This document shows positions 3,009-50,086 of a stretch of DNA of 54,575 nt, piece by piece; position 1 is the stretch's first letter, and each line of letters opens with the position of its first letter. A program made the translations under genes and the position numbers. Under the pieces are notes generated by a model. The model was not told where the DNA came from. It made no database searches and saw only the letters and a list, made by a program, of their open reading frames with translations. Origin of the DNA: Nitrosovibrio sp. Nv4 (GTDB lineage: Bacteria > Pseudomonadota > Gammaproteobacteria > Burkholderiales > Nitrosomonadaceae); the NCBI GenBank assembly GCA_945888885.1, contig CAMDAX010000001.1, positions 1 through 54,575 on the forward strand. The letters run 5' to 3'.

Positions 3009-3053
3009 TAAAGTAGACCGGTTCGTAGCTGTAACGGCAGCGGACTTACCTCG

Positions 3054-5072: not shown

Positions 5073-5076
5073 CAGA

Positions 5077-6783: not shown

Positions 6784-6869
6784 TTTCGGCAGAAGCTCTA
6801 TGAAAACTCAATTAAATAACTTCAGGTATCGAGAATCATCATGTAACTCCATGATCTTAAGTTATTCGG

Positions 6870-8168: not shown

Positions 8169-8267
8169 ACATTGCTCCCATGATTATGCTACCGCGCTTC
8201 AGTCCATAACATATTTTTACATTATGGCACTTTCCTACAATAAAATTTGATCTGAATCAACAACCAT

Positions 8268-10511: not shown

Positions 10512-10614
10512 TGTCGCAATATTAACGGATGTAGTTTGCGGGTGATCCAGGGAAATTTGGCCATGAACGCGCATGAATAAAATAATATTGTTTTAAACAA
10601 ACCAAGAAAACTTC

Positions 10615-11799
10615 ATGAAAGCACGGGAAGTGGTGATATTGAGCGGCGTCCGTACCGCCATCGGCGATTACGGTGGCACGCTCAAGGATGTTGCCGCCAC
10701 AGAACTGGCGACAACAGTGGTGCGCGCAGCGGTGGCTCGTGCCGGGATCGATCCCAACGAAGCTGGACACCTGGTTTTCGGCAATGTGATACACGGCGAG
10801 GCCCGAGATCTATATCTCGCACGCGTAGCCTGCATCAACGCTGGCCTGCCGCAGAGTACCTCCGCACTGACCTTGAATCGCTTGTGCGGCAGCGGTCTGC
10901 AGGCAATCATCTCCGCCGCGCAAACCATCCTGCTGAGCGACACCGATGCGGCCGTTGCAGGCGGCGCGGAGTCCATGAGTCGCGGCGGGTATCTGCTGCC
11001 GGCGCTACGCTGGGGGCAGCGTATGAATGATGGCACTACTGTAGACATGATGGTAGGTGCACTGACCGACCCCTTCGATAACGTGCATATGGGTATTACC
11101 GCAGAAAACATCGCCATTAAATGGGACATCAGCCGCGCAGAGCAGGACAGATTTGCGCTGGAAAGTCACCGCCGCGCCATCAACGCCATCAGTAATGGCT
11201 ATTTCAAAGAACAAATACAGCCAATTGAGCTGAAAACCCGTAGCGGTACGGCAATTTTTGATACCGACGAGCATCCGCGTGCGAATGTGAGTGTCGAAGT
11301 CCTGGCCGGACTGCGCCCAGTGTTCCAAAAAAATGGCACGGTCACGGCTGGCAACGCTTCCGGTATCAGCGATAGCGCGGCGGCAGTAGTGCTGATGGAC
11401 CGCAGTTCCGCCGAGAAGCGCGGTCTCAAACCGATGGCGCGACTGGTATCCTACGCTCACGCCGGGGTCGATCCAAAATACATGGGCATCGGCCCGGTAC
11501 CAGCGGTGCAAAATGCCCTGAAGCGCGCCAACCTTACGGTGACTAACATGGACGTGATTGAGTCCAATGAGGCCTTTGCTGCTCAGGCATGCGCGGTAGC
11601 GAAAGAGCTGCATTTCGATCCGCTAAAAACCAATCCTAACGGCGGTGCGATAGCGCTGGGGCACCCTATAGGTGCGACCGGCTGCATCCTCACGATCAAG
11701 GCAATTTACGAGCTGCACCGCAGTGGCGGACGCTATGCGCTGGTGACCATGTGCATCGGTGGTGGTCAGGGCATCGCAGCGATATTCGAACGTCTGTAA
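10615..11799 (+). CDS. Acetyl-CoA C-acetyltransferase (thiolase II)
   Basis: 394 aa with [11 protein letters not shown] (active-site Cys), [21 protein letters not shown] and CIGGGQG. Confidence 0.9.
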
Positions 11800-21585: not shown

Positions 21586-22644
21586 TTAAGCTACCGAGTT
21601 GGAAACCTTGTCCAAACGCTCCAGTACTTCAAATTTTCTCGTGTTCAGATCAGTGAATCCAGTAAGTATATTCAGGTGCGGCACCAGATCCGGAACCTTG
21701 ACTTTAATGACATCAAGCGAAAATTTGCTCAGGAATCTTGCTTTCTCCTTAGCCAGTTCGCGATCTGGACCAATTTCTCTGTAAGCGGCTGAAGTCATGA
21801 GCACAATGCCGCTTGGATCGATCCGGCTGTCGTCGATATTGCCTTTCAGCAGCATGGCCGCAGTTCCAATCGCATCGGAAAGGTTCGGGTCAAAAGGCCC
21901 CACAATGAAAGCGGTGTTGATGGCGTGCAGCCAGTCAAAGCCGCGCCCCACCCCCAAGACCCATTCCTTGTGGTAGGCATCTTCGATCGGCCTGTTGGTC
22001 GCACGGATCATTCGGACGTGTTTGATGTTTCCTTCGACCAACGGGATCAGATCCTTGAAAATCTGTTCCGGCATTGAGGGGTACAGCAAACGCAGCAAAC
22101 CTTGCAATTCGAGCCCGGATAAGTCTTCCTTAACTTCGGCTAGATCAACAACGCGACCGTCTTCGCCGTGCAGGATCAAGGCGTCGAGATCGGTCTCGAT
22201 ACCGCAAACAATTGGCACCACGGCGCCTTTGCCGTAAATGTTCTCAAACTGACTCTTGAGCCTTATGGCTGTGTCTCTGGCAGCATTGGTATCGTAATTG
22301 AATCCCCTGCAACCACGGTGAGCATCTCCGCGCGCGAAATGATAGGTCACAAAGATCAGGCAGTGTCTGCCACGACTGATGGCTTGCTGTGCCCATTGAT
22401 CCAGGGTTGCTTGAAAAAAGGGCCAGCCCAGATCAAACTTGCCACCCAGATTGCGAAAAGGTTGAACGATTCCGACTGCAGTTCGCGTCATGACCGGCAG
22501 GTTAAGCCGGCCATCCATGCATTTAAGCGCCGCTATTTCAGTAGGGTGCTCACCCCGGTATCTGCGGCGCTCCATGGCCAGATCAATAAAAGTTCGAGAG
22601 TGGCGTGCATTCAAATCAAGCAGGTAATCAATTCCGGTATTCAT
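21586..22644 (-). CDS. Divergent beta-carbonic-anhydrase-like protein with an unassigned ~200-aa C-terminal domain
   Basis: 352 aa. KCMDGR (C42-x-D44-x-R46), then 13 residues, then VQPFRNLGG, then H109-RG-C112. This reproduces the beta-CA CxDxR ... RN ... HxxC zinc-site pattern. A ggaga SD lies 7 nt before the ATG. Residues ~150-352 carry no motif I recognise. Confidence 0.6.
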   Translation of the reverse strand: MNTGIDYLLDLNARHSRTFIDLAMERRRYRGEHPTEIAALKCMDGRLNLPVMTRTAVGIVQPFRNLGGKFDLGWPFFQATLDQWAQQAISRGRHCLIFVTYHFARGDAHRGCRGFNYDTNAARDTAIRLKSQFENIYGKGAVVPIVCGIETDLDALILHGEDGRVVDLAEVKEDLSGLELQGLLRLLYPSMPEQIFKDLIPLVEGNIKHVRMIRATNRPIEDAYHKEWVLGVGRGFDWLHAINTAFIVGPFDPNLSDAIGTAAMLLKGNIDDSRIDPSGIVLMTSAAYREIGPDRELAKEKARFLSKFSLDVIKVKVPDLVPHLNILTGFTDLNTRKFEVLERLDKVSNSVA

Positions 22645-22736: not shown

Positions 22737-24245
22737 CTAAGAAGATAGATTAAGTAGCCGCGACAACCATACCTCTGACGCCATTTGATTGATATGCAGC
22801 ACACTGTCCGGGAAGAACCCAAACACCAGAACCAGCAGAGCAGGAATACATAACAGGGCCAGTTCTCGCGGGGATAAATCCTGCGCCTGACTGACAACGG
22901 ATTGCGTGATCGGACCGAAAAACGCACGGCGGATATAGGACAGCATGTATGCGGCACCAAGGACTGCACCGACCAATGCAGCGATGCCAAAACTGGCGTG
23001 TGCTTTCAATGCACCGATAATCAACATTAGTTCAGCGGGGAAACCGCTGGTTCCTGGTACCCCGATACTCGCCAGGGTAAACAAGAAATAAAAACAGGTC
23101 AGCCGTGGCATCACTTTGGCCAAACCACCCAAGTGGATAATCTCGGTACTGCCCAGCCGGTGTTGAATCATGCCGGCAACCAGCATCAATGAACTGGCCA
23201 CTAAAGTGAAGTTAAGTAATTGGAAAATCGCACCCTGCAGACCCTGTATATTCAGGGACGCGATACCGACCACCACTAGGCCAACGTGACTGATACTGGC
23301 GTAAGCCAGCAGACGGCGCAGATTAGTCTGTTGTAAAGCAATCAACGCACCATATATAAGCGTAATCGTGCCCAGAATGCCCAATATCCAACTGTATTCG
23401 ACAGCCGCAGAAGGGGCTAGCGGCATGGCAAAACGCAAGATACCGTAAGCTCCCAGTTTCAGACCGGTCAGTATTGCTGTTATGTGTGCCGGGCCTTCCA
23501 TTGCAGCGGTAGGTAACCAGGTATGAAAGGGGACTAAAGGAGCTTTGACACCGAAACCAAGCAGTAACAATAAGAAAACCAATGTTTGCAAATCAGCCGC
23601 CAAAGGCGTTTCCAGCAGGACCGGCAAGCTGAAGGATAGCGCTTGGGGAATAGCGCCGCCTACTGTCACGGCGTGATTGGTCGCCAATATAACGATTGCA
23701 AATAGTAGCGACACTCCGCCAAACAGCATAAACAGCGTATATTTCATCGCAGCGCCACGGCGCTGCGAACCGATGCCCCATAAGCCGATTAAAAAGAAGA
23801 ATGGCGGCAGCGTCAGTTCCCAGAACAAAAAGAACAACACCGTATCCAGTGAGGTGAACACCCCGATGGTGATCCCTTCCAGTGCCAGCAATAAGACAAA
23901 ATGAAAGCGGGGGCTGTGTTGCACCGAATTCCATGAAGCAATGATCGCAGTCAGCGTTAACAGCGCTGACATTGGCAGAAATAACACCGAAATACCATCA
24001 ACACCGACCAGGTAATTGATATTCAGAAACGGTATCCAGGGATACTTTTCGACCAATTGAAAATCGCCGCTACCAGCATTGAATGACTGCACTATCAGCA
24101 GCGTCAGCAGCAGTTCGCAACCGGCAATTACCAGCGCGATCGCTTTGGCCAGTTTTACGGTAGGGGTGAACCCGGTGGCAATAGCACCCAGTAATGGCAA
24201 TAGAATGGCTAGACTCAGTAGCGGAAAACTTGCTTCACTCATCAT
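22737..24245 (-). CDS. Complex-I subunit M / MrpD-like proton-conducting membrane transporter (PF00361-type), paralog 3
   Basis: 502 aa and polytopic, with FWELTLPPFFFLI (TM5 Glu) and GVKAPLVPFHTWLPTAAMEGPAHITAILTGLKLGAYG (TM7 Lys / TM8). Its start overlaps the upstream gene by 11 nt (ATGATGAGTGA). Confidence 0.8.
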   Translation of the reverse strand: MMSEASFPLLSLAILLPLLGAIATGFTPTVKLAKAIALVIAGCELLLTLLIVQSFNAGSGDFQLVEKYPWIPFLNINYLVGVDGISVLFLPMSALLTLTAIIASWNSVQHSPRFHFVLLLALEGITIGVFTSLDTVLFFLFWELTLPPFFFLIGLWGIGSQRRGAAMKYTLFMLFGGVSLLFAIVILATNHAVTVGGAIPQALSFSLPVLLETPLAADLQTLVFLLLLLGFGVKAPLVPFHTWLPTAAMEGPAHITAILTGLKLGAYGILRFAMPLAPSAAVEYSWILGILGTITLIYGALIALQQTNLRRLLAYASISHVGLVVVGIASLNIQGLQGAIFQLLNFTLVASSLMLVAGMIQHRLGSTEIIHLGGLAKVMPRLTCFYFLFTLASIGVPGTSGFPAELMLIIGALKAHASFGIAALVGAVLGAAYMLSYIRRAFFGPITQSVVSQAQDLSPRELALLCIPALLVLVFGFFPDSVLHINQMASEVWLSRLLNLSS

Positions 24246-25854
24246 GCCCGCCCTTGGCCCCGATAGGCGCGGTCACGGTCACGGTGCCAGACTGTTGTGC
24301 ACCATGATGCGTGGAATTCAACACAGCCTCCAACTCGTTCACGGAGGCCACTACGTTCTGGTCTATCACATGCACCCAAGGTGACGTGTAGAAACCCGTG
24401 CCGATCAATAATGAGCAAATTATTACTGCAATAATCTGTTCCTTCTTGGCGGGTTTATGAGTACTGCTGTGATGCTGTAGAAATCGTTTCGGCGCGGCAA
24501 CAAATATCTGTTGAAAAGCACGCAGCAAAAGACCCGCAGCCAGGAGGTTTCCCAGCAATATCGCAGTGACGACCAGCCAACCGTATCTGGTAGCGGTGCC
24601 CTCAATCAGCAGATGTGCGCCGTCAAACCCTGGAGTACCAGGCATGACCATGGTGGTCAATGCAGAGATCACAAACAGAAATGCGATGGTGATGTTGGTG
24701 TCAAACAGCCCGCCCAGGCGCGGGATAATAGCAGTGCGAGTCCATTCATAAATTAGGCCGACACTGAAAAACATGCCCGCTGTCGCGAGTCCATAAGAAA
24801 CAGCTAACAGGATGGTGCCTTCCATGCCATATTCGTTTAAAGAAAAAATTCCGATAACCAGAATTCCCGTATGACTGACGACGGCGAAGGCCAGCAGACG
24901 GCGGATATTGATTTGCATCAGCGCCAGCAACGCACCGTAAATGATACTGATTAAACCCAGTGTCAGCACAAATCCAGACCATTGTTCGGCGGCCTCCGGA
25001 ATCAGCGGCAGGATAAAACGAATAGCCGCGTAAACACCCAGCTTCAGACCCACCAGAAAAATAGCCACACTTGCGACGGTGCCTTGTTCCGCCAAGGCCG
25101 GCAGCCAGCCATGAAATGGGAATATCGGCATACGAATGGCAAAACCAAAAAACAGGAGAAAGAAGATCAACGACTCATACTGTAACTGCGCATTACTGAC
25201 CTCTTTTAATTTCAGCCAGTCAAAAGTCAGTTCAGCGCCAGGTACTGCGTTCATTACGCCAACGGCGAGCAAGATGAAACCTGCCAGGGTCATCAATAAC
25301 CCGCCCAGCCAGTGTTGCAGCAATAATGCGACCACCCAATGCCGGTTTTGCCCGGTGCCGGCACGAATCGTCAACAGCACCACCGGGATCAGTTCCAGCG
25401 CGCACCATAGCCAGAACTGCATCAGATTCATCGCCGAGAACGCGCCGATCAGGATGCCTTCGTAACCCAACAAGCAGGCGATCTTAGTCCGATCAGTTGC
25501 GTGCCGGGTAATCGAGGTATAAACCAAAACCAGCAATGAAAAAATGGCCGTCAGTGGAATAAACAGGATATTGGCGCCATCAACGCCCACGCTGTAAGTA
25601 AAGCCAAGCTTGTGTATCTCTTCAGCCAATTGAATACCAGGACGATCAGCATCGAAAACGATCAGCAGGTAGAGGCTGAGCAATACCGTCGACAGTGCTC
25701 CGGCAAAACCGATACGCAATGCCACCGACGATGAGCGTGACAATAGAATAGCGGCCATCGTTGCCAGCGGGATAAGCGTCAGCATGGTCAGCAACGGGAA
25801 TGCTGCTGATTCCGACCATGCAGTAACAGCAGTAATAGTAGGAGTAATAGCCAT
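24235..25854 (-). CDS. Complex-I subunit M/N-like membrane transporter, divergent paralog 2
   Basis: 539 aa with AIRMPIFPFHGWLPALAEQGTVASVAIFLVGLKLGVYA and INIRRLLAFAVVSHTG. The TM7 position is Arg rather than Lys. There is a hydrophilic ~45-aa C-terminal tail. Confidence 0.75.
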   Translation of the reverse strand: MAITPTITAVTAWSESAAFPLLTMLTLIPLATMAAILLSRSSSVALRIGFAGALSTVLLSLYLLIVFDADRPGIQLAEEIHKLGFTYSVGVDGANILFIPLTAIFSLLVLVYTSITRHATDRTKIACLLGYEGILIGAFSAMNLMQFWLWCALELIPVVLLTIRAGTGQNRHWVVALLLQHWLGGLLMTLAGFILLAVGVMNAVPGAELTFDWLKLKEVSNAQLQYESLIFFLLFFGFAIRMPIFPFHGWLPALAEQGTVASVAIFLVGLKLGVYAAIRFILPLIPEAAEQWSGFVLTLGLISIIYGALLALMQINIRRLLAFAVVSHTGILVIGIFSLNEYGMEGTILLAVSYGLATAGMFFSVGLIYEWTRTAIIPRLGGLFDTNITIAFLFVISALTTMVMPGTPGFDGAHLLIEGTATRYGWLVVTAILLGNLLAAGLLLRAFQQIFVAAPKRFLQHHSSTHKPAKKEQIIAVIICSLLIGTGFYTSPWVHVIDQNVVASVNELEAVLNSTHHGAQQSGTVTVTAPIGAKGGHDE

Positions 25855-25862
25855 CAGGTTCT

Positions 25863-27431
25863 TCAGATCGCAGCTGCAAGCAGCAACACTGTGAATACAA
25901 ACACTACTAGGTAGCGGGGCTTCAGTATCAATTTCTCAAACTTATTGGCGGCATATCCCAGCTGGCGCCCCAGGTCGATCGCGTCTATGCTTATGCCCCG
26001 CAATACCAGCCGATCTTCAAACCAGTTGAAAATGTCCGCTGTCCATTGGAAAAGTTTTCCGGCCACACCACTGCTACGACTAAATTCGTTGGGATCATGT
26101 ACCGGCCCGGAACTCAGTATTTTTATTTCCAGTTGTGCCAGTGACGATATGGCACGGCCTGCGCGCGCAGGGGTGCCCATGATGCGATCAACGATATGGT
26201 CATCTAAATAGTCCAGGTCATGTCCCATCCCGTGAACCGGTCTTACCAAAGCCCGATCGGTAACTGGGTCCAGCCAGAAACGCTGTATTGATGCGGTATA
26301 TAGCCAGCGCAGCCCGGCAATATTGCGGGGCACTGGTTTCATCGGGTTGCCATGGACATAATGCAGAAACGACGGGGCGGTCAATACCTGATAGCAGCGC
26401 ACCACGGCATGAGCGCAAAGATGCCAGCTGGCCAGTTGCCACAAACCCAGACCGCATTCCAGAAACATCAAACCTAGTTGAGCTGATATGGCAAAACACA
26501 ACGAACTTTTGACATCAGTTTGAGTCAGTCCGACCACAAAGCTATAGATGGCGGTAATTAATCCCACAGCGACCAGCACTCCCATCGCAAATGGAGCCAT
26601 TTCAAAAAGTGGCTGCAGCAGGATTACCAGATAGACCCCGGCATGCGTCATGATTGCACCGTAGAACACCGCACTCGACGGCGTCGGCCCTTCCATCGCC
26701 CGCGCTAGCCATGGGGTGAATGGCAGTTGCGCCGATTTTGCAAAAGCGGCTGTGGCAAAACATAAGGCGATTACAGTGGCGGTAGGGGTGGTCAGTTGTT
26801 CTGTTACCGCGTTTAGATTGCCCCAGTCGATGGTCTCGGCATAAAAATAGCTCACGCCTATTCCCAGAATAAAACCGGCGTCACCGATGCGATTGGTGAC
26901 AAATGCGCGGGTTGCATTGATAGCGGCGATCGGACGGTCATAGGCAAAGACTATCAACAGATAGGAACATAGCCCGGCAATTTCCCAGCCGACAAAAGTA
27001 CCGACGGCATTACCCGATAACACCAGCAACAACATTGCCGAAGAAAACAGGCTCAGGATAAAAAAGAACCGGTAAAAACCAGGTTCTTTATGTAGATAGT
27101 TGATTGAGAAGCGAGTGACAATAACCAGCAGAATTGAAAATAGCGTCGCCAAGCCGACATTAAAACCCGTAGTGATAAAATTCATCTGTATGCTCAAGTT
27201 ATCACTGCCCAGCCACTGCCCCGCACTGAACGAGCCGGAGTTTTTGCCAAGCAAATCAGCGCCCAGCAAAGTCAAGGCCAATAGGCACGACAGGGTAATA
27301 GCCAAGGTAGCAATACTTGCAGCCATGGCTTCATCGGCCACGCCGCGAAGCATGCCGAATAGATGACCGGTACCGATAACCGCAGCTGCGATCAATGGTA
27401 GCAACGGGACCAGAACAACCAACGAATCCAT
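25863..27431 (-). CDS. dabB: DabB-like NuoL/NdhF-type membrane subunit
   Basis: 522 aa with FVGWEIAGLCSYLLI and AKSAQLPFTPWLARAMEGPTPSSAVFYGAIMTHAGVYL, both NuoL signatures. It begins 4 nt after the DabA stop. Confidence 0.75.
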   Translation of the reverse strand: MDSLVVLVPLLPLIAAAVIGTGHLFGMLRGVADEAMAASIATLAITLSCLLALTLLGADLLGKNSGSFSAGQWLGSDNLSIQMNFITTGFNVGLATLFSILLVIVTRFSINYLHKEPGFYRFFFILSLFSSAMLLLVLSGNAVGTFVGWEIAGLCSYLLIVFAYDRPIAAINATRAFVTNRIGDAGFILGIGVSYFYAETIDWGNLNAVTEQLTTPTATVIALCFATAAFAKSAQLPFTPWLARAMEGPTPSSAVFYGAIMTHAGVYLVILLQPLFEMAPFAMGVLVAVGLITAIYSFVVGLTQTDVKSSLCFAISAQLGLMFLECGLGLWQLASWHLCAHAVVRCYQVLTAPSFLHYVHGNPMKPVPRNIAGLRWLYTASIQRFWLDPVTDRALVRPVHGMGHDLDYLDDHIVDRIMGTPARAGRAISSLAQLEIKILSSGPVHDPNEFSRSSGVAGKLFQWTADIFNWFEDRLVLRGISIDAIDLGRQLGYAANKFEKLILKPRYLVVFVFTVLLLAAAI

Positions 27432-27435
27432 TGCT

Positions 27436-30400
27436 TTAAACTCCCAATTCTTCAGGCTGTTTAATCAATATGGGCGATACCGGCACCGATAGGCCCTGGT
27501 AACAATCCACCGATTTCTCACGAACCGGTAATTTTTCTACTTCCGCTTGCCATGGAACGAAACCCACGCCACGCTCAAAAACAGAAATTTCACCGCTATC
27601 AGGGTCTATCGCGCTCAACAGTACCCAGCCGCCGCCTATCAGTTCGCGCAAACTTTCTTGACGGGCATAGATCTCTCCGAGCATTGAAGTTTTCGCCTCG
27701 ACCACAATCTGCAAACGTACCGCTTCGTGAATCTCTACCATCTGTTTTGGCAGGCCGGTGCGTAAATCACTGCTGGCTCCTTCCATTACGCCGAACAGAC
27801 CGATGATGTTATGTGGGATTTTGGTGCCGCAGCCAAAACGTTCGTTGTTAATCGTGGAAAAGTAGTATTCCAGGTTAATCCCGGCACCGACAGGACCGAC
27901 GGTCAGCAGAACGTTTTCGAGCAGCTTACCTTCGGGATCCTGAGTTGCATCGTAGGAAATAAGAAAAGCGCGCCGATCGAGAAATATTCCCTGCGTGACG
28001 GAGCGTCGACCAATGACTGCTGAAGCATTGGTGGCATGTCCGTATTCGGGACGAACCTGACTCAGGTCATTGGAACGATTTGTCACATGGCGCATGGCTG
28101 CTGCTGGCGATGCCGGGTTGCGGGCTGAAATGAAACGGCGGCAGCGCTCCTGCGCGGAGGCCGCCCGAGCCTGCAAAACGCAGGCTTGACAGTCATCGAA
28201 GGCGGAGCGCAATTTTTGCGGGACGTCTTCTATGTCGTACCAGGTAACGACATCACTGGAAGTATCATGTTCGGCGCCGACAAACCAGCTATCTTCAGGA
28301 ACCACGATACCGTGCTGTACCAACAAGGCACGTACTCCGGGGCGGTTGGCCATCGCCGCAAATACGCGCGCATTCGGGCCGCCACGCCGTCCGCTGCAGG
28401 CACCACAATCATGGGCAGCTTCGTGCGGATTATTTTGACTGGTCGAACCATGCGCCATGAAACAAACGATCGGTGCAAACCCGTAGGCTAAGCCGGCATT
28501 GCGTAGGAATCCGGCAAGCCGATCAGCCTGTTCAGTGGTTGTAAAACCCAATCGTGGATGCTCAGGGGTTGCCGGGGCGGCAGTATTTGCGGCAGTAAAC
28601 AACAACTCAGTCGGTACTTTACGTAAGATATTTTGCCGCAGGTTGCCATTGGCCGCATTAAAATAGGTCGGCAGAAATGTTTTGCTTAACAGTGTAGCCA
28701 AAGTAAATGGAGCCAGTGCGTCAATAGCTGCATACGACAACAACATATTACGGCGAAGACTCTGGTTCAGCAAATAAGCGAGCCGCTTATAAAATTTGCG
28801 CCCTCTGTTATGTGCATGCAGCACTTCGTCGGTCCCCTTTCTCGGGATCTCGTCAACTTGATGAACTGGCGTCACGACCACCGGACACAGCGCCGTCGTG
28901 TGATGGTCGTCCAGCCCCTTATAATTCATCGGGATGCCAAAGAACCCGGCAGCACCCAATGTTTCAATGGCGGGATTGATTTCTTCCAGATGACGGCGAA
29001 TACTTTCTTCACGCTCATCAATACAGAATACTACTTGCGCTTGAGGACGCTTATCACGCCTGGCCCAGCGGCCGCGGTTATGATTGGCGCGCAATGCCTG
29101 AAAAAGATCTTCCCTGTAATGATACTCGTAGGCATCAAGCCAGACCTTGCTGCGCTCGGTCAGGTTGAACTCATCCAGTATTGCCAGCATCTGCTGTAGA
29201 TCTTTCTGCTGCAATTGTCGAATGTGCACAGCGTTGAGCCCCAGATGCTGGCATAAACGGAACAGACGCCAGCCATCATTGAACTCACAGTTTCCGGCAT
29301 TGGTTTCCGCCAATGGGCTGAACTGCCAGGTCCAGACCAGGTCGGCGAGCTGCTGCCAGTCAGCCTGCTTATGCCGTTCGGAACCGGTACGGCTTATCAG
29401 TGACTCCGCCGACTGGGTCAGGTATTCCGGCAGGCCGCCTTGATACAATTGGCTGCGCACCACGAATTCCGACAGGTTCTTACTGAAATAGAATTGCAGC
29501 GAACTCAGCTTGGCTTCGATTTTCCAGGTTTCGTAACAAGCCTGATCAAGCCAGAGTCTGTCCAATATCAGCCGGATAGCCAAATAATCCGCCAGATTAG
29601 GTGCCGCATCGTTCTCGGTATGGTATTGCGGATGCTGCTGCCGCCAGTTGACCAACCCCGACCAGCCCGGTAATTCCAGTGCCAGCCGCCGCAGATACCC
29701 TTCCCATTTGTCATGGGGTATTTCCAGATGGATCAGTTGCTGGATAATGGCATCGACCGCATCCTCTGGGGATTCGGCCACAATCTGCTGCCAGTTGGGC
29801 AAGTCATGCAGGAACGGGTTCGCGTCGTATTGTGCTGTCGCCCGCCAGGCTGCGTATAGACCCAAGCGGTTACGTTCGGGTAGTTGCCAGGCCGCTACGC
29901 CTTCGTCCAGAGCGGACGCACAGATGCGTATCATTTGCGGACGGACGGAGTAGAGAATATCAACCCCGCTCAATGCCAGGACAAAACCGCGTAGGGTGAT
30001 GCCATCGCCAATTTGGGTCAACAACTTGTCCAGCGAAATCGTTGCTTGTTGCCGCATGCGCTGATGCAGCGTAAGGCCGCTACTATCCGGATCACTGGAG
30101 TGAATTTTCTCCAGCCAGACTTCTGCCTGCTCCAGTGACAAATCAAGCATGTTCTCTGGGTGCAGGGCGATTTTCTCCAACCCAAGCTTGGCTGAAACAT
30201 TTTCCCACAACTGCCTAATGGCATCGCTTTGGTCGACGCTGCCTGCCAGCAACCGGCTGCGGACTTGCTCAGGTACATCAGCTTGCACTGTACCCAGCGC
30301 ATCCAATTCTTCTATTTGCCAGTTGAATTGACTGACAGTAAGGGCTTGCAGGTCAAACAGCATGGCGATGCGATAAATATCCTTGCGCGTAATCGTCAAG

Positions 30401-30720
30401 TCATTTGCCGTACAAACGAACTGCTCAGCCTGTAACTGCGGATTATGTGCGAGCGCCGCAAACAGATCCCGGTCATTAATACGCCCCTGTTGATAAAACT
30501 CACGGTTTTGTGCCTCAGGAAGATAGCCGAAAGTGCCGGTTAATGCTTCGTAGGCTGCCAGCGCCTGTTCAAACGGCAGATGCTGAAAACCATGGATAGT
30601 ATTGTGGTGGACGAAATCATGAATCGGTCCCTGCCCAGGAAGGACATGATCTAGATGATTGATCGCCGCGATGATCTGCTCGCGACTACCGGGGGATTCG
30701 GAATTTGCATGCATTGTCAA
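27436..30720 (-). CDS. dabA: DUF2309-family DabA-like protein (beta-CA-like subunit of DAB inorganic-carbon pumps)
   Basis: 1094 aa in the ORF-track numbering. The N-terminus reads [35 protein letters not shown] gives C566/D568/R570, and [24 protein letters not shown] gives H757/C772. The ORF track starts at TTG 30720; the likely ATG is at 30714. Confidence 0.85.
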   Translation of the reverse strand: [1094 protein letters not shown]

Positions 30721-30724
30721 TGTC

Positions 30725-32197
30725 CTATTGAATACGTTGACTGATCAGGCTGCTCATGTGGGACAGGGTTGCTGATGACAGGTCAATCAGCGGCTCAGGC
30801 AGCAAGCCAAACAACACAATGCCCGAAACCAGCAAACCGGCTGCCAGTAACTCGGGGGTACGCAAATCTTCGATCTCCCGCATCTGCGGCTTTACCGGGC
30901 CGGTGAATAATAGGCCGATGGTGCGGATGGCATAGGCGGAACTGATCAGGATGCTGAGGCTGAAAAACACCATCAAGCTGCCCCATTGCTGATAACCGCC
31001 GATAATGGCATGCAGCTCGGCAATAAAACCCACCGAACCCGGCAAGCCCATCGCCGCGAACAAGGTTAAAGTCATGAACAAGGCAAAACGTGGCATCACC
31101 TGAACCAGTGAGCTGTAATCCTGAATGTTACGGGTATGAGTGCGTTCATACAGTAGCCCAACCAGCAGAAACATCGCGCCCGCGATCAGTCCATGAGCGG
31201 TCATTTGCAAGACTGCACCGGTAATTCCTGTCTCATTCAAGGTTGCAATACCCAATAAGACAATACCCATGTGACTGACTGAAGAATAAGCCACCATCGC
31301 TTTAAGATCACTTTGCCGCCAAGCCAGTAAGCCACCGTAAATCATCCCGAATAACGCCAGAAAAACCAGCCATGGCTGTAATATTTGTGCGGCCTCCGGC
31401 AACATTACCACGACCCTTATCAAACCATAAGCACCCATCTTCAGCAAAATGCCGGACAGCAGAATACTGACCGGACTGGGCGCTTCGACGTGGGCCAAGG
31501 GCAGCCAGCCGTGCAGTGGGAAAATGGGCATCTTAACCCCAAAACCCATCAAAAAACCCAATAGTACCCAGACCTGCTCATCCCGTGGCATGCTTTGCGC
31601 CGCCTCACTCATCGAGGCCATCAATGAGCCGCCGTGTTCAGGCATGTAGTGACCAATCGCGAGCAAACTGATGAGCATGAAGATCGATCCGCCCATCGTA
31701 TACAACACAAAGTTGAGACTGGCTGTGTGTCGTCGCTTTCCACCCCAGCGGTCAATCAGAAAAAATAACGGGATTAAAGTCAATTCCCAGAATATATAAA
31801 ACAATGCCCAATCCTGCGCTAGAAACACGCCCAACATACCGAACTCCAACAACAGGATGCAAATATGAAAACTCTTGACACTGCTTGAAATAGTGAAAGA
31901 AGCAAGCAGTGCGATAGACGTGAGCAGAGTCGCCAGAACCACCATGGGCAATGACAGGCCGTCAACGCCCAAAGCGAAGGCGGTGCCCAGCTTTGGATTA
32001 AGCGTAAACTGTTCGCCGTATTGCAAGCCGCCATCAAGCTGATTATAAATAACGACCAGCCAGCAACTTAACAAAAAAGTGAGCCCAGCAAATAGATTAG
32101 CAAGGAACCGCATCCGATTGCTGTCCTGGCGTGACGTGAGTGCCAAGAGCAAAATCCCGACAACCGGAGTCCAGAGAAGTATGCTAAGTATCCCCAT
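30725..32197 (-). CDS. Complex-I subunit M (NuoM/NdhD)-like proton-conducting membrane transporter, paralog 1
   Basis: 490 aa with FYIFWELTLIPLFFLI and GVKMPIFPLHGWLPLAHVEAPSPVSILLSGILLKMGAYG, canonical NuoM motifs. It is the first gene of the operon, and its stop lies 4 nt before DabA. Confidence 0.82.
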   Translation of the reverse strand: MGILSILLWTPVVGILLLALTSRQDSNRMRFLANLFAGLTFLLSCWLVVIYNQLDGGLQYGEQFTLNPKLGTAFALGVDGLSLPMVVLATLLTSIALLASFTISSSVKSFHICILLLEFGMLGVFLAQDWALFYIFWELTLIPLFFLIDRWGGKRRHTASLNFVLYTMGGSIFMLISLLAIGHYMPEHGGSLMASMSEAAQSMPRDEQVWVLLGFLMGFGVKMPIFPLHGWLPLAHVEAPSPVSILLSGILLKMGAYGLIRVVVMLPEAAQILQPWLVFLALFGMIYGGLLAWRQSDLKAMVAYSSVSHMGIVLLGIATLNETGITGAVLQMTAHGLIAGAMFLLVGLLYERTHTRNIQDYSSLVQVMPRFALFMTLTLFAAMGLPGSVGFIAELHAIIGGYQQWGSLMVFFSLSILISSAYAIRTIGLLFTGPVKPQMREIEDLRTPELLAAGLLVSGIVLFGLLPEPLIDLSSATLSHMSSLISQRIQ

Positions 32198-32435
32198 CGT
32201 ATAGATTTTTCTTTACGTTCGTCGCTATTGGGTAATTTTAAAAATCAGGGAGGATTCAAGCCAGCTAGTTCACCTTAAATCCGAGTTTACGCCCTGACAC
32301 CAAAACATGTGGCGATAAGCTGCTTTCAGGCGGGAATAACAATCGCAATCGAGTTAATGTGATTGCTGAACTAGGCTGTGGTCACCTTGCGACCAAGTTA
32401 ACTATAGTGTTGTACAGTATAAAGTAATGGAAGAT

Positions 32436-32464
32436 AAAGCATGAAAAACCGGTTTTCATGCTTT
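32436..32464 (-). terminator. Hairpin downstream of the USP gene; probable intrinsic terminator separating it from the DAB-like operon
   Basis: aaagcatgaaaa-accgg-ttttcatgcttt forms a ~12-bp stem 26 nt after the USP stop. On the minus strand the stem ends in UUU followed by AUCUU. Confidence 0.5.
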
Positions 32465-32489
32465 ACTCCCTGCGCTCAAATTGAATGTA

Positions 32490-32879
32490 TTAGTGCAGAC
32501 GGACCAAGAGAATGGATGCCTCTATTTTACTTACCAGTTGTTCCGCCACCGAACCGATGACCAGACGTTCCAGGCCACGGCGATTAGATGTTCCCACTAC
32601 GACCAGATCGGCCTCCCATTCAGCGGCGGCATTGGCAACGGCCTCTGCTACGCTGCTCAGACCATATTCGGCATCTGCTTCAAGCAAGCGGGTCTCTACA
32701 TCGAGTACAGTGCCCGCAGCAATCCTGGCATTCTCCAGCAGGTTGGCGTCGTCCAGGTTGCTAGCAACATGAACGATGCATAGCTTAGCGCCATATGAGC
32801 CGGCAATGTGCAAGGCTTCCTGCAATGCGCTCTGGGACATTTCGCTATCGTCAATCGCCACCATGATCTTGTTGTACAT
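32490..32879 (-). CDS. Universal stress protein (UspA family)
   Basis: 129 aa with KIMVAIDDS and DLVVVGTSNRRGLERLVIGSVAEQLV (ATP-binding G-x2-G-x9-GS). An agaggag SD lies upstream. Confidence 0.85.
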   Translation of the reverse strand: MYNKIMVAIDDSEMSQSALQEALHIAGSYGAKLCIVHVASNLDDANLLENARIAAGTVLDVETRLLEADAEYGLSSVAEAVANAAAEWEADLVVVGTSNRRGLERLVIGSVAEQLVSKIEASILLVRLH

Positions 32880-32975: not shown

Positions 32976-34328
32976 TTACGGTCGGTTCATATCACCACCC
33001 TTGAGCCCATCAAAGTACTTTTCAATGATGGACTTGTGTGGGAGTTTATCGGCGTGGTAATAAACCATATAGTGAACGATGCCGTGCACGGCCATGGCGA
33101 TCAGCAAGCCCTCAAAGATTCCCACCTTGTAGACCAGACCACCGCATAAGACTGCGAGCATCAGTGGATAAGGGCCATAGTGGGTAACATGCACTAGCCC
33201 CAGGATCATTTTCCAGCCCGTGAATATCATGATCGCCGCCAGCGCAAACTTCGGCAGATATGCCAGATATTCCGAGTAAATCAAGAAGAAAGTAACGACA
33301 AGACCGATGATCAGTACGGAAAATTTAGTATAAGCCCCGGCCAGCCTGTTGGTGGTACTTTTTGCCAGACCGTCCAGATTGGTCATGCCACCGAAAAAAC
33401 TTGCACCCATGTTGGAAATCCAGATCGCCAACAGGCTATTATTACTGTTGCATTTGCGTCTCAATGGGTCTATTTTCTCGATCGCAGCGTTGCTCATCAC
33501 TTGTTCTATCACGTCAATCACCGCCAGCATCGCTGCAAAAAGTATCACATACACCCAGGTCAATGCGCTGTCAAACTGCGGGATCGGCAAGGCGAACTTG
33601 AGTTCCACATCTTCCACATATAGCATCTGTAAAGGCATGAATTGGGCCAATATCACGCCAGCGAGAATCAGCACAAAATAGGGAATGGCAGGCTGGCTGT
33701 CCTTGAATTTTGAAAACAGGTACACGAACATGGCAAAACCACCTAGCGATATCAGGCACATCTGGATGCGCGCCCCGTTCCAGAAGGATTCGGCGGATAC
33801 CTGGTCGACCGGCAGCTCATAAGTCATATCCATGAACTTCAACGCGATCTTCAAGCCCACCCCTGCCAGTAACCCCTCGACCAGATAACCCGGCACCGCG
33901 ATTAAAATGTAACGCTGCCAGTCGTATTTCCAGATAACGGCTTGCATGAGAGCGGTCAGGAAAATGACAAACGCCATATTTTCCATGCCGAAGCTAGCGA
34001 CGCCAATAGCCAGCACCGGCGCCAGGCCCGCCGCGATTCCGGGACTGCCAATAAAGTTTCCGGGTCTGATCCAGGCATTGATCCAACCGATCAAACAGGC
34101 AAAAGCAACCGTCGCCAGCCCCACCTTGATCGGGTAATCCGACATCATGGCGATGCCGACTGACAGGGGAATTGCCATTGCCCCAGTGATAATCCCCGCT
34201 TGGATGTCGCGCGCTAGGTACTTGACCTGAAATGCCGCTGATCCTGGGATGGTGACTGGCTCCATCGTGTTGCCGGACTCGTGGTCATGCGCTGGCGAAG
34301 CAGGCTTATCTATATTATGCGAGGTCAT
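32976..34328 (-). CDS. SulP-family-like anion permease lacking a STAS domain
   Basis: About 450 aa and polytopic. The N-terminal RDIQAGIITGAMAIPLSVGIAMMS resembles the SulP TM1 signature (DxxAGxTxxxxxxPxxxA). The protein ends about 35 aa after the last TM, so there is no STAS domain. The ATG at 34328 has a gggaga SD 9 nt upstream; the ORF track starts at TTG 34334. Confidence 0.65.
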   Translation of the reverse strand: MTSHNIDKPASPAHDHESGNTMEPVTIPGSAAFQVKYLARDIQAGIITGAMAIPLSVGIAMMSDYPIKVGLATVAFACLIGWINAWIRPGNFIGSPGIAAGLAPVLAIGVASFGMENMAFVIFLTALMQAVIWKYDWQRYILIAVPGYLVEGLLAGVGLKIALKFMDMTYELPVDQVSAESFWNGARIQMCLISLGGFAMFVYLFSKFKDSQPAIPYFVLILAGVILAQFMPLQMLYVEDVELKFALPIPQFDSALTWVYVILFAAMLAVIDVIEQVMSNAAIEKIDPLRRKCNSNNSLLAIWISNMGASFFGGMTNLDGLAKSTTNRLAGAYTKFSVLIIGLVVTFFLIYSEYLAYLPKFALAAIMIFTGWKMILGLVHVTHYGPYPLMLAVLCGGLVYKVGIFEGLLIAMAVHGIVHYMVYYHADKLPHKSIIEKYFDGLKGGDMNRP

Positions 34329-34402
34329 TAGCAATCATCTCCCGATTTCTTAAGCCCAAAAGATAACATAAGTAATGTGAAGAAAACATATTTTAAATGT
34401 GA

Positions 34403-35698
34403 TTAATTTGTGATGTCCACGGCGCTGCGGTCAGGGAAGGTGATATGGAAGGTTGAACCCTGCCAGGGCGTGCTGTCGACCTCGATGCGCCAGCCGTGGT
34501 AATCGCAGATACACTTGACGATGGCCAGCCCAATCCCCAGACCTTCTCCCTGGGCCGAACCCCGGAAAAAGCGCTCGAACAGGAAAGGCAGGTAAGAGGG
34601 CTCAATACCAATACCCGAATCGGAGATCGTGATTTCGCGGCCGCTGAATTTCACCCGGACAAAACCATGCGCGGTATATTGCACGGCATTGCGCAGCAGG
34701 TTCGCCAGGGCCGTGTGCAGCGCCTGCCGGTTGAGCATGAGGACGGCTTCCGGCGCCACTGCCACCTCGAAGTCGAGGTGTTTGCGCGCAATTTCCGGAC
34801 GCAAAGGCGCCACCGCATCGAACACGCATTCCGTAATTACGACCGGCTCCATCACGCCCAGCGCCTGTTCGCGCGCAAGAAACAGTAAAGCCTGCAATTG
34901 TTCGCCCATGCGGGTCGCTGCCGACTCAACCATGCCGATGCGGATGCGCACCTTTTCGGACAAATCCAGCTCGGTCGCCAACAACTCGCAACTCGTCAGA
35001 ATCGTGGTGATCGGGGTACGCATCTCATGGCTTACATTGGCCGTAAATTCCTGCTCGCGCTGCAGTATGCGTTTAATGCGGCTCTGGTAATCATCCAGTG
35101 CGCGTGCAAGCTGCGCCACTTCTTCGTCCATCCCCGGCTGTGTCAGCGTTACGCCCTGCTCGTTGCCGGGTGCAAGATGCCTTACCTTCTCGGCAAGGTC
35201 GGCGACCTCTCGGACGAGCAATCCGGCAAGCAGGTACCCCACCACCAGCGCAACGCCGACTAGCGAGATCAGCGACAGCCCGATCAGCAGCCCGAACTCC
35301 TGTTTGCGCTGCTCATGCAGCCCGATTTCATAAGCAACAAGAAACTTGGCCCCATCGAAGTGCCGTACCGCGACCCGGATTTCCTGGGGACCGCGAAATA
35401 CCATGTGACGCCTTAGGTCGAGATCCTGCAGGTAAGCGGGCAGCCGCAATTCCTCGGTGTGGTCACGCACGATATATTCTTCGAGGTTGGGGCCAGCTTG
35501 TGGAATAAAATTAGGCTGCTGACGATAGCGCTCAATGAGATGGTCCATCTCCATTTCAATGACCTGCTCGATGTGCGCCTCCTCGATATTGCCGGAAGCG
35601 ACATAAAGACTGATACCAAGGGTGCCGACGACGAATATGCAGAAGATTGCGAACGCCAGCGCAATACGCAGGCGCAGGCTGCGCTTAAGCTTGAGCAC
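34403..35698 (-). CDS. Sensor histidine kinase (two TM helices, HAMP, HisKA, HATPase)
   Basis: 431 aa with H-box VSHEMRTPITTI, N-box LLRNAVQYT, G1 DSGIGI and G2 GEGLGIGLAIV. The GTG start overlaps the response-regulator gene by 14 nt. Confidence 0.88.
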   Translation of the reverse strand: MLKLKRSLRLRIALAFAIFCIFVVGTLGISLYVASGNIEEAHIEQVIEMEMDHLIERYRQQPNFIPQAGPNLEEYIVRDHTEELRLPAYLQDLDLRRHMVFRGPQEIRVAVRHFDGAKFLVAYEIGLHEQRKQEFGLLIGLSLISLVGVALVVGYLLAGLLVREVADLAEKVRHLAPGNEQGVTLTQPGMDEEVAQLARALDDYQSRIKRILQREQEFTANVSHEMRTPITTILTSCELLATELDLSEKVRIRIGMVESAATRMGEQLQALLFLAREQALGVMEPVVITECVFDAVAPLRPEIARKHLDFEVAVAPEAVLMLNRQALHTALANLLRNAVQYTAHGFVRVKFSGREITISDSGIGIEPSYLPFLFERFFRGSAQGEGLGIGLAIVKCICDYHGWRIEVDSTPWQGSTFHITFPDRSAVDITN

Positions 35699-36368
35699 GA
35701 GTAATCAGGTGGTAGCCGAGGCCGTGGACAGTCCCGATCGGATCGTAGCCGCCAGCCCGAATCAGTGCACGGCGCAGTTCATGCATATGACTGCGCAGGG
35801 TGTCGCTGGTTTCCTGCGCCCCCCCCCACACTCCCGACTCGAGCTCTTTACGGCTGAATACGCGGCCGGGCTCGCCCATCATAAGTGCAAGCAGGCGGAT
35901 GCATTTTGGCGGCAATTTGACCCCTGAACCAGCGAAATTGATCGACATCATTTTCGGGTCGAACGTTAGATCGCCGGTTTCCAGCGTGCGGCTGGTAACT
36001 TTGCCGCCATGGCGTTTGTGCATCGCAACCAGACGTGCTTCGACTTCTCTCAGTGCAAACGGTTTGACCAGATAGTCATCGGCCCCGTGTTCGAAACCCT
36101 TCAGCTTGTCTTCCAGCGTGTCGCGCGCGGTCAACATCAGTATCGGCGTGTCCAGCTGCGCTTCCTGACGCAGCTTCCGGCACAATGTGATGCCGTCCAT
36201 ACCCGGCAAACCGAGATCAAGTAGAATGCCGTCAAAGCGCTGTGTAATCGCGAGATGCAGGCCGGTGATGCCGTCAGCCGCCGCATCGGGACTATGCCCG
36301 CAGACTTCCATAAAATCGTAGAGATTGGTAGCGATCGCTGGATCATCTTCGATTATGAGTATACGCAC
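35685..36368 (-). CDS. OmpR-family response regulator
   Basis: 227 aa. The receiver reads MRILIIEDD...ILLDLGLPGMDG...LTARD, followed by a winged-helix C-terminus (IGTVHGLGYHL). GTG start. Confidence 0.9.
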   Translation of the reverse strand: MRILIIEDDPAIATNLYDFMEVCGHSPDAAADGITGLHLAITQRFDGILLDLGLPGMDGITLCRKLRQEAQLDTPILMLTARDTLEDKLKGFEHGADDYLVKPFALREVEARLVAMHKRHGGKVTSRTLETGDLTFDPKMMSINFAGSGVKLPPKCIRLLALMMGEPGRVFSRKELESGVWGGAQETSDTLRSHMHELRRALIRAGGYDPIGTVHGLGYHLITRAQA

Positions 36369-50016: not shown

Positions 50017-50086
50017 CTATCTCTCATGGTTAGACGCTGTTTGATTGTCTCCCGCTTTCCCTCCCTTAGCGGGGCCTTAATACTTG

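Follow-up and report, generated by a model that had tools for sequence, protein, structure and literature searches.

A five-gene DAB-type operon with three full-length NuoM-type subunits in Nitrosovibrio sp. Nv4 and other proteobacteria

The window analysed here is the whole of a 54,575-nucleotide stretch of DNA from Nitrosovibrio sp. Nv4 (GenBank assembly GCA_945888885.1, contig CAMDAX010000001.1, positions 1 to 54,575 of the forward strand), and our subject is a block of five minus-strand genes that encode, in order, a NuoM-type antiporter-like subunit (M1), the carbonic anhydrase-like protein DabA, the NuoL-type protein DabB, a divergent NuoM-type protein (Mx) and a further NuoM-type protein (M2). 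Members of the DAB family are "vectorial" carbonic anhydrases, independent of redox reactions and driven by an ion gradient, which convert CO2 to HCO3- in the cytoplasm; the literature on the family describes only fused, two-subunit (DabAB) and three-subunit (DabABC) forms. The five-gene form is genuine and widespread, occurs in bacteria of biogeochemical importance and can inform on mechanism; we infer its function from comparison. The reading that we favour, with a probability of roughly 0.6, is that the five proteins would form a single vectorial carbonic anhydrase of the DAB type, powered by an ion gradient, the longer membrane arm of which may move more than one ion per CO2.

Arrangement and identity of the five genes

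The five open reading frames (ORFs; Table 1) are as closely packed as an earlier, sequence-only reading of this DNA had described them, with exactly the gaps of 4, 4 and 8 nt and the 11-nt overlap given there. Read from the sequence, the M1/DabA junction is TAG-gaca-TTG (4 nt), the DabA/DabB junction is TAA-agca-ATG (4 nt), the DabB/Mx junction is TGA-agaacctg-ATG (8 nt), and Mx and M2 share the 11 nt of ATGATGAGTGA. The true start of DabA is probably the ATG located two codons past the TTG, because the resulting product of 1092 aa has the same length as the two closest homologs.

The Pfam domain matches of the five proteins were far beyond chance, and the expected PF10070, PF00361 and PF00662 matches were all obtained. 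DabA covered the entire PF10070 model (E = 3e-249), DabB matched PF00361 (E = 8.7e-38) together with PF00662, and PF00361 was also matched by M1 (E = 1.7e-69), Mx (E = 2.2e-39) and M2 (E = 2.2e-63). With the NuoM subfamily model TIGR01972, which has a cut-off of 263.8 bits, the scores were 480.6 bits for M1, 281.1 bits for Mx and 465.7 bits for M2. Among solved structures, NuoM/ND4/NdhD chains scored 290, 176 and 268 bits against M1, Mx and M2, respectively, compared with about 80-93 bits for MrpD or NuoN; the best match of M1 was NuoM 8qby_M (290 bits), the chain against which M2 scored 268 bits. All three extra subunits are accordingly classed as NuoM-type, and an Mrp-type or NuoN-type identity was ruled out by the family-model and PDB scores. 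The earlier labels thus held for DabA and the NuoL-type DabB, and those of Mx ("NuoM/N-like") and M2 ("NuoM/MrpD-like") both have to be changed to NuoM-type. The four TM7-TM8 signatures (TM, transmembrane segment) quoted for the antiporter-like proteins were present in the alignment as written.

No ORF for a NuoA/H/J/K-like or MrpB/C/E/F/G-like subunit, and no room for one, was found inside the block or in the 292-nt spacer upstream of it, and there was no such small subunit among the 14 annotated flanking ORFs, which are a part of the ORFs in the window. The absence of these genes had been noted from the sequence and was corroborated to that extent.

Channel residues of the extra subunits

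The three extra subunits were aligned to E. coli NuoL, NuoM and NuoN and then across orthologs (n = 70 for M1, 57 for Mx and 51 for M2), with E144, K234, K265, H322, H348 and E407 of E. coli NuoM as the reference channel residues. M1 has all six of them (E138, K222, K253, H309, H335 and E394), invariant in 70/70 sequences, and M2 has five of the six (E143, K234, K263, H320 and E405), invariant in 51/51, so that M1 and M2 look like working channels. The picture for Mx was uniform across its 57 sequences: the position of the TM5 Glu is occupied by A, L, V, F, M, I, G, S or T, at TM7 an Arg stands for the Lys, at TM8 the Lys is retained, and at TM12 the Glu/Lys is replaced by A, V, I, T or M. Given that Mx is without the TM5 and TM12 charges, three modules and not four appear channel-competent; judged by these residues only three of the four antiporter-like modules look conductive, and Mx looks like a connector.

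Conservation and distribution of the five-gene block

One genome per species was scanned, which yielded 80 loci (individual loci are cited by L numbers); the ORFs of each locus were assigned to the best-matching window protein and the contig ends were checked after this assignment. The order M1-DabA-DabB-Mx-M2 on one strand was complete in 52 of the 80 loci, 26 were cut by a contig end and two were exceptions, which means that the complete order was present in 52 of the 54 loci long enough to show it. The expected co-occurrence of at least three PF00361 genes with DabA was thereby borne out. The closest scanned locus was that of a Nitrosomonadales metagenome-assembled genome (91% identity), and across the surveyed loci the identity of DabA to the window protein dropped to 41-45%.

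The block is common in nitrifiers, methanotrophs and sulfur oxidisers and was spread over six or more orders of proteobacteria (Nitrosomonadales, Methylococcales, Thiotrichales, Chromatiales, Rhodocyclales and Magnetococcales). Its carriers included Nitrosomonas, Nitrosospira, Nitrosovibrio, Ca. Nitrotoga, Sulfuricellaceae and Thiobacillus; Methylobacter, Methylomicrobium, Methylomonas, Methylovulum, Methylococcus and Crenothrix; Thiothrix, Thiolinea, Cocleimonas, Chromatiaceae and Thiohalophilus; and Ca. Thiodiazotropha, Sedimenticolaceae, Rhodocyclaceae, Tepidiphilus and Magnetococcales. More than 1400 relatives of the long DabA (about 1085-1126 aa) were found, the named ones being from Nitrosomonas, Nitrosospira, Nitrosovibrio, Methylobacter and other Methylococcales.

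The median gaps at the four junctions over the loci were 4, 0, 1 and -4 nt, and on a closed 3.1-Mb Nitrosomonas chromosome with independent gene calls the five genes (490/1090/522/527/501 aa) had the same layout and Pfam content. The pairwise-distance matrices of the five proteins were mutually correlated with r = 0.86-0.95, which indicates that the block has been inherited, and evidently transferred, as a unit. M1 was the most conserved of the five proteins, with a mean pairwise distance of 0.37.

Of the two exceptions, L043 has a frameshifted DabA with nothing downstream, and L078 (Thiothrix, 1020-5815) has a long DabA-DabB, with Mx and M2 both missing from the 8.4 kb that follow. Another Thiothrix locus, L051 (8439-23111), carries a tandem duplication of the core in the order M1-DabA-DabB-DabA'-DabB'-Mx-M2, and these two Thiothrix loci together suggest that the core can be mobile or duplicated independently.

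In two Methylomicrobium loci, L023 (3295-7814, minus strand) and L028 (3298-7800, minus strand), a two-gene DAB consisting of a DabA of 871 aa and a DabB lies divergently next to the five-gene DAB. The five-gene form is thus not redundant with a simple two-gene DAB, and the presence of both side by side speaks for their working under different regimes, much as cyanobacteria divide the task between low- and high-affinity systems. A candidate DabC in the second DAB of L023 was rejected, the ORF being the shadow of a desaturase gene.

Two further loci deserve mention for their context. In L039 a cassette of about 7 kb (4609-11488) splits DabA from a fused DabB-Mx gene; it has two paralogous AAA_22/AAA_35 ATPase genes at its borders and aminotransferase, CHAP-domain, lipase and FabA genes inside, and looks like an insertion into the operon. 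L045 (JAIVTC010000400.1), which is binned as "Candidatus Bathyarchaeota archaeon", contains M1-DabA-DabB with a DabA of 47% identity to that of the window and is most likely a mis-binned proteobacterial contig.

DabB and its fusion to Mx

As in other members of the DAB family, DabB is a PF00361 protein of the NuoL type that adjoins DabA and keeps the proton-path residues of TM5, TM7, TM8 and TM11. E150, D184, K232, H341 and R345 were invariant in 62/62 sequences, H263 was kept in 59/62 and H337 in 60/62; Arg345 occupies the position of a Lys in NuoL (K342) and in the DabB of Thermocrinis albus (K316). The resemblance to NuoL/NdhF extends through TM11, the NuoL models covering residues 3-361 only, and among solved chains DabB scored 198 bits against NdhF1 (6hum_F), 119 bits against DabB2 (9rd0_B) and 112 bits against NdhF3 (6tjv_F). 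According to hydropathy and hydrophobic moment, TM11 is followed by about 150 amphipathic, non-hydrophobic residues and then by a single C-terminal TM, although the hydrophobic-moment analysis only suggests amphipathicity. An AlphaFold2 model built from 44 sequences was confident for TM1-11 and helical for residues 371-507, the latter at a predicted local distance difference test score (pLDDT) below 50; a NuoL-like "strap" or lateral helix formed by the DabB tail is possible on this model.

Mx was searched exhaustively against 1.84 billion representative proteins, and two fusions of DabB with Mx were recovered: P0364 (1040 aa), in which residues 19-509 correspond to DabB (47% identity) and 539-1039 to Mx (40%), and P0409 (936 aa), in which the Mx part is shorter at its N-terminus. 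In the locus survey, L039:11566-14573 is one continuous ORF with DabB and Mx parts and two PF00361 stretches, and at its junction the C-terminal TM of DabB leads through a short linker into TM1 of Mx. Over-long ORFs in L038, L056, L064 and L079 were dismissed as upstream read-through caused by the longest-ORF rule, leaving L039 as the only real fusion in the locus survey. The fusion fits the topology, in that 11 TMs, a cytoplasmic helical region and one TM back to the outer side end where a NuoM-type N-terminus begins. Such "Rosetta-stone" fusions are evidence for DabB and Mx lying side by side within a single complex.

A free-standing membrane arm that serves DabA, without the small subunits of complex I or Mrp, is therefore a well-supported proposal given the co-occurrence of the genes, the correlation of their distances and the DabB-Mx fusions. 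The arm had been pictured as a chain of four antiporter-like modules, which, given the degenerate channel of Mx, are not all equivalent.

The carbonic anhydrase-like subunit DabA

DabA is homologous to DabA2 of the solved DAB2 structure (9rd0_A; E = 1.7e-79 with the single sequence and 3.4e-96 with a profile). C351, D353, H524 and C539 of DabA2 align to C566, D568, H757 and C772, and these four residues together with R570 were invariant in 48/48 divergent sequences; by this alignment DabA is predicted to keep the zinc site of DabA2. Compared with the two-gene-type DabA of Methylomicrobium, to which it is 39% identical over the carbonic anhydrase-like part, DabA has two insertions in the N-terminal helical domain (approximately 84-249 and 366-522). 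A hydrophobic hairpin at about 655-690 lies within the poorly conserved stretch 641-725 between the carbonic anhydrase-like halves, and its segment 660-678 is placed where a membrane-inserting elbow or finger hairpin into DabB would be expected.

One position close to the zinc differs from the characterised proteins. In DabA2 the canonical Gln/His near the zinc is replaced by L658, which is reported as "strictly conserved among 150 homologues" (PMC13144422), and in T. albus DabA the equivalent of the proposed proton-shuttle H397 of CsoSCA is L825 (10.64898/2026.05.01.722082). The long DabA does not have this hydrophobic Leu: His895 stands at the position of Leu658 (RPEYGHATNA versus RPEWGLAGNA), and a His was found there in 48/48 long DabAs. 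A Leu at this position, presented in both 2026 structure papers as characteristic of vectorial DabA, is thus not universal. The two-gene-type DabA of Methylomicrobium (L023) also has a His at this position.

Neighbouring genes and upstream spacer

Downstream of M2 lies a gene for a stand-alone beta-carbonic anhydrase of the CsoSCA type (CA352; Table 1). Its sequence gave a weak PF20686 match and 27 bits with TIGR02701, against a cut-off of 241, and NCBI lists its family under the name [quoted passage not shown]. C42, D44, R46, H102 and C112 were invariant. The AlphaFold2 model (pLDDT 91.6) had the CsoSCA structures 8thm, 2fgy and 9g4t as its top Foldseek matches, all three with E-values of 1e-15 to 1e-17 and TMq of 0.68-0.77 (8thm: E = 6.6e-17, TMq 0.72-0.77), and it predicts the catalytic and pseudo-catalytic fold of CsoSCA with a Cys/His/Cys zinc site and an Asp-Arg dyad. 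With its 352 aa, CA352 lacks the N-terminal domain of CsoSCA, the solved chains of which have about 460 aa. No carboxysome or RuBisCO genes were present among the annotated ORFs of the window.

CA352 was located 3' of M2 on the same strand in 10 loci, at a distance of 15-131 nt (15-49 nt in seven of them), and was nearby and convergent in four further loci; both CA352 and the SulP gene described below were absent from most five-gene loci. In Nitrosomonadaceae CA352 is effectively a lineage-specific sixth gene of the operon, and the view that the arm serves a single carbonic anhydrase-like head therefore becomes uncertain for loci of the Nitrosomonas type. Members of the CA352 family (about 350 aa) came from Nitrosomonas and Nitrosospira and also, with 55-60% identity, from Patescibacteria of the Candidate Phyla Radiation (Doudnabacteria, Jorgensenbacteria and Uhrbacteria), which is an odd distribution for a "carboxysomal" enzyme.

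On the other side of the block, the spacer contains a near-perfect 18-bp hairpin (-21.6 kcal/mol, z = -5.3), the stability of which was reached by 0/200 shuffled sequences. The hairpin is probably the terminator of the unit formed by the SulP and universal stress protein (USP) genes, though it is without a clean U-tract, and the five-gene block has its own start. There was no plausible small ORF in the spacer and no sequence conservation with the upstream regions of L001 or L002. A sigma-70 scan gave no significant match in the spacer, sigma-70 and terminator sites being fewer or no more numerous than in shuffled sequence. An Rfam scan of the window gave no match near the operon; the sole match in the window was anti-hemB (RF02837, Burkholderia RNA 7) at 50048-50137 on the plus strand (69.8 bits, E = 2.4e-14), which agrees with a betaproteobacterial origin of the DNA.

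The SulP and USP genes are candidate co-located inorganic-carbon genes outside the conserved five-gene core. L003, L005 and L008 have the same pair on the upstream side of the block, and in L005-L008 and L083/L084 there is a SulP gene on the downstream side.

Table 1. Position and characteristics of the five genes and of the neighbouring features in the window
Feature	Position	Strand	Length	Remarks
M1, NuoM-type antiporter-like subunit	30725..32197	-	490 aa	First gene of the block
DabA, PF10070 beta-carbonic anhydrase-like cytoplasmic subunit	27436..30720	-	1092-1094 aa	Likely true start ATG at 30714
DabB, NuoL/NdhF-type	25863..27431	-	522 aa	TM1-11, about 150 aa of amphipathic helices, one C-terminal TM
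Mx, divergent NuoM-type	24235..25854	-	539 aa	Conserved degenerate channel; probable connector adjoining DabB
M2, NuoM-type	22737..24245	-	502 aa	Last gene of the conserved block; 11-nt overlap with Mx
CA352, stand-alone CsoSCA-type beta-carbonic anhydrase	21586..22644	-	352 aa	92 nt past M2
Upstream intergenic spacer	32198..32489	-	292 nt	Terminator-like hairpin at about 32436-32470, just past the USP gene
USP	32490..32879	-	129 aa	PF00582 (3.7e-25)
SulP-family permease	32976..34334	-	452 aa	PF00916 (1.9e-24); 0.8 kb upstream; no STAS-domain match
Histidine kinase and OmpR-type response regulator pair	34403..36368	-		Preceding SulP

Proposed mechanism and alternative readings

If the five proteins act as one complex, catalysis and coupling would take place in a core of DabA and the NuoL-like DabB, as they do in the solved DAB1 and DAB2. 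Mx would lie directly beside DabB, at the place of DabC in DAB1, and serve mainly as a connector, and M1 and M2 would be working ion channels that lengthen the arm and let in more than one H+ (or other cation) per CO2 hydrated. Such gearing would permit a steeper HCO3-/CO2 disequilibrium, or CO2 capture at a lower concentration or membrane potential, at a higher energy cost. We estimate that a single H+ supplies approximately 14.5 kJ/mol at about 150 mV, which corresponds to a disequilibrium of about 350-fold, and tens of mM HCO3- against about 1 uM CO2 needs more than that; the extra channels would extend the working range. Gene content, spacing and order, the residue patterns and the DabB-Mx fusions were seen directly in the sequences; that the five proteins assemble together, where M1 and M2 sit, which way the ions flow and that more of them are moved is what we infer from the comparisons above.

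Several observations weigh against this interpretation. The position of the TM11 His in M2 is occupied by Phe (F346) in 51/51 sequences, and the C-terminal region of DabB, which is the candidate strap between the subunits, was modelled only at a pLDDT below 50. Because Mx is without the TM5 and TM12 charges that relay the coupling between subunits in complex I, the electrostatic chain may break if Mx is situated between DabB and M2, leaving M1 and M2 uncoupled from DabA. Given the duplicated core of L051, and L078 without Mx and M2 nearby, the DabA-DabB core may also work alone. If CA352 is co-expressed as a soluble enzyme, it would be liable to run down an accumulated HCO3- pool, unless it is regulated or compartmentalised. 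Finally, many of the carriers are methanotrophs that use the ribulose monophosphate pathway, and the role need not be an autotrophic concentration of CO2.

The degenerate channel of Mx (57/57) and the lost TM11 His of M2 are also what would be expected if the complex were indeed a single DAB in which the NuoM-type subunits are structural or allosteric scaffolds and only DabB conducts, with the stoichiometry of DAB1 and DAB2. DabC of DAB1 sets a precedent, being NuoM-like and non-conducting yet essential, and one H+ may thermodynamically suffice under many conditions. We nevertheless regard this as rather unlikely: M1 and M2 have six and five of the six channel residues without exception in 70 and 51 sequences that diverge to about 50% identity, and M1 is the most constrained protein of the set, where a subunit with a scaffold role alone should have drifted in the way that Mx and DabC did. 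A more radical separation, in which DabA-DabB is an ordinary DAB and M1, Mx and M2 assemble elsewhere (as spares of complex I, or with the CsoSCA-like protein or SulP), would account for the two Thiothrix loci and for the similarity of M1 and M2 to E. coli NuoM (34-36% identity), which is as high as that of M1 to M2. It is very improbable in view of the DabB-Mx fusions, which tie Mx to DabB, of the gene order, in which M1 always comes before DabA and Mx-M2 always after DabB at translational-coupling distances, and of the co-inheritance of the five proteins (r = 0.86-0.95), from which CA352 and SulP are set apart by being missing from most loci.

The nature of the ion and the direction of its flow could differ as well. 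A link between Na+/H+ antiport and the uptake of inorganic carbon had been suggested for this operon, and Na+ in place of H+, or Na+/H+ antiport combined with CO2 hydration, would be in line with the DAB homolog MpsAB, which has been argued to use Na+ (the Na+/HCO3- proposal), with the Mrp subunits among PF00361 proteins and with marine carriers such as Nitrosomonas marina, Thiodiazotropha and Cocleimonas. The data did not favour it, however, and we consider it improbable: the extra subunits are all NuoM-type (176-290 bits, versus about 91-93 bits to MrpD), there are no MrpB/C/E/F/G-like genes in the block or the spacer, DAB2 failed to rescue a Na+-transporter-deficient strain, and freshwater and soil nitrifiers and methanotrophs carry the five-gene family just as commonly. 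Operation in reverse, where CO2/HCO3- conversion or another exergonic reaction at DabA drives ion export for energy conservation or pH homeostasis, goes back to the COGNAT hypothesis of 2017 (PMC5700660). It would suit methanotroph and nitrifier carriers, which generate CO2 or acid internally, and gating could differ with His895 in place of the Leu of the vectorial DabA1 and DabA2. On the other hand, every tested DAB or DAC accumulates dissolved inorganic carbon and depends on the membrane potential, near-equilibrium CO2 hydration offers little free energy for pumping several ions, and the active site and the coupling residues of DabB are conserved with the characterised importers, which makes reversal quite improbable.

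Taken further, the favoured reading of one complex with an extended arm could describe a geared vectorial carbonic anhydrase: a free-standing, redox-independent complex-I-like arm made of DabB, a degenerate NuoM-like connector and two NuoM-like channels, which would move 2-3 or more ions per CO2 for high-affinity CO2 capture in nitrifiers, methanotrophs and sulfur oxidisers, with Mx as the full-length counterpart of DabC and the five-gene form as an evolutionary bridge from complex I/Mrp-type arms to DabABC and DabAB. We put this forward only tentatively, as a possible elaboration that may well be wrong in its specifics.

Among non-photosynthetic autotrophs, DAB pumps are the principal CO2-uptake systems known; they are also candidates for engineered CO2-concentrating mechanisms, and their coupling mechanism was structurally addressed only in 2026, for the two- and three-subunit forms only. 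A variant with extra, apparently functional NuoM-type channels makes it possible to test directly how ion translocation is coupled to the gating of a carbonic anhydrase and whether added modules can tune the stoichiometry, the same question that is asked in complex I research. For ammonia oxidisers and methanotrophs, which control N2O and CH4 fluxes and the inorganic-carbon acquisition of which is poorly understood, it is also a candidate system of high affinity for inorganic carbon.

Comparison with known systems

In the literature we found no functional or structural study of the five-gene form, no match for DUF2309 together with Nitrosomonas and, apart from one comparative-genomic note, no DabA or DAB with full-length NuoM partners. 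That note, by Klimchuk et al. 2017 (COGNAT, Biol Direct 12:26, PMC5700660), describes "clade C" ybcC operons, in which ybcC (COG3002) precedes a nuoL homolog and which have extra NuoM (COG1008) and SulP (COG0659) genes; it proposed that more membrane subunits translocate more ions and, before the function of DabA was known, guessed at an exergonic reaction driving ion export. The operon in the window has the clade C features of DabA before DabB, three NuoM-type genes and SulP; the neighbourhood and the "more ions" idea are both already known. The architecture had been thought uncharacterised, which is right as regards experimental work and wrong as regards the gene neighbourhood. The COGNAT account of clade C is purely comparative-genomic and appears to give neither the number and order of the subunits nor an analysis of residues, to mention neither a degenerate Mx nor fusions, and to make no connection with the uptake of CO2.

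With the membrane arm of complex I the five-gene form shares a chain of homologous antiporter-like subunits, the order DabB-Mx-M2 paralleling nuoL-M-N. Complex I has in addition NuoA/H/J/K, a Q-module and a NuoN-type subunit, none of which is found in the block, and its NuoL has TM12-16 and the canonical long lateral helix, which DabB appears to lack; it exports ions driven by redox reactions, whereas the five-gene form is proposed to hydrate CO2 powered by ion influx. A "2M" complex I with an extra NuoM was reportedly described by Chadwick et al. in ISME J in 2018, and the added copy is said to have been proposed to raise the ion stoichiometry. Mrp (Mnh/Pha) is likewise a redox-independent complex built from PF00361 subunits, but it has MrpB/C/E/F/G and the C-terminal domain of MrpA, both of which are missing from the five-gene form; MrpA/MrpD chains in the PDB scored about 85-124 bits, compared with 176-290 bits for NuoM, and the NCBIfam Mrp models were far below their cut-offs. 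In the cyanobacterial NDH-1MS/MS' (PDB 6tjv) a NuoL-type NdhF3 and a NuoM-type NdhD3 serve a cytoplasmic CO2-hydrating protein, itself a vectorial carbonic anhydrase, in a comparable manner, on a full redox-driven NDH-1 scaffold and with a CupA that is unrelated to DabA. DabB and the M subunits scored higher to NdhF1/NdhD1 and NuoL/NuoM than to NdhF3/NdhD3, the ndhF3_CO2 model TIGR01960 gave 152.5 bits against a cut-off of 588.7, and there was no Cup-like protein among the annotated ORFs and no other NDH-1 gene in the cluster. Since the defining features of these systems were tested and not found, the five-gene form is not a complex I, Mrp or NDH-1MS module.

The closest relatives are the DAB pumps themselves. 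DAB2 of Halothiobacillus neapolitanus (PDB 9rd0, PMC13144422) has a homologous carbonic anhydrase-like DabA with the same four active-site residues, and in DAB2 and MpsAB, as here, DabB is a PF00361 protein of the NuoL type and the system is redox-independent. DAB2 is a heterodimer encoded by a two-gene operon, to which the five-gene form adds three subunits; its DabA2 has 827 aa, about 270 residues fewer than the five-gene DabA, mostly owing to the two N-terminal-domain insertions, and the five-gene DabB is nearer to NdhF1/NuoL than to DabB2.

That characterised DAB pumps consist of one DabA and one antiporter-like subunit, as the sequence-only reading had assumed, is out of date. DAB1 is a DabABC heterotrimer, in which the half-size, non-conducting and NuoM-like DabC is essential and occupies the NuoM position beside DabB; each HCO3- is proposed to cost one H+ that passes through DabB and a second H+ that arises in the cytoplasm, the entry for DabC in Aquificae reads "fused", and Nitrosomonas eutropha C91 (Neut_0801) is listed with a DAB1-type system that includes DabC (10.64898/2026.05.01.722082, the listings in its Supplementary Table 6). 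Nitrosomonas oligotropha, communis, marina and Nm132 have the five-gene form, unlike N. eutropha C91, and lineages of ammonia oxidisers therefore use different DAB types.

DAB1, as described from T. albus and H. neapolitanus, and the five-gene form share a long PF10070 DabA with the zinc site of a beta-carbonic anhydrase, a NuoL-like DabB with the TM11 His/His/basic motif, which in DAB1 couples to DabA, and an extra NuoM-related subunit beside DabB that has hydrophobic residues at "channel" positions (DabC there, Mx here) and is sometimes fused to DabB. They differ in that DabC is half-size and belongs to no Pfam family, whereas Mx is a full-length PF00361 protein of the NuoM type, and in that DAB1 has no counterparts of M1 and M2, which are full-length and have their channel residues intact or nearly so. 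The third position of the TM11 motif is Lys in DAB1 and Arg in the five-gene form, which by hydropathy has one hydrophobic segment past TM11 and appears to be without the TM12-15 bundle of DAB1, and DabA precedes DabB, unlike in DAB1.

On its core features, the zinc-site DabA and the NuoL-type DabB, the five-gene form is thus assigned to the DAB family. It departs from the characterised forms in its subunit composition (DabA, DabB and three full-length NuoM-type proteins), in the His for Leu, in the tail of DabB and in the insertions of DabA. Mx is proposed, by analogy, to be the full-length counterpart of DabC, and the five-gene form offers a plausible evolutionary origin for this enigmatic subunit.

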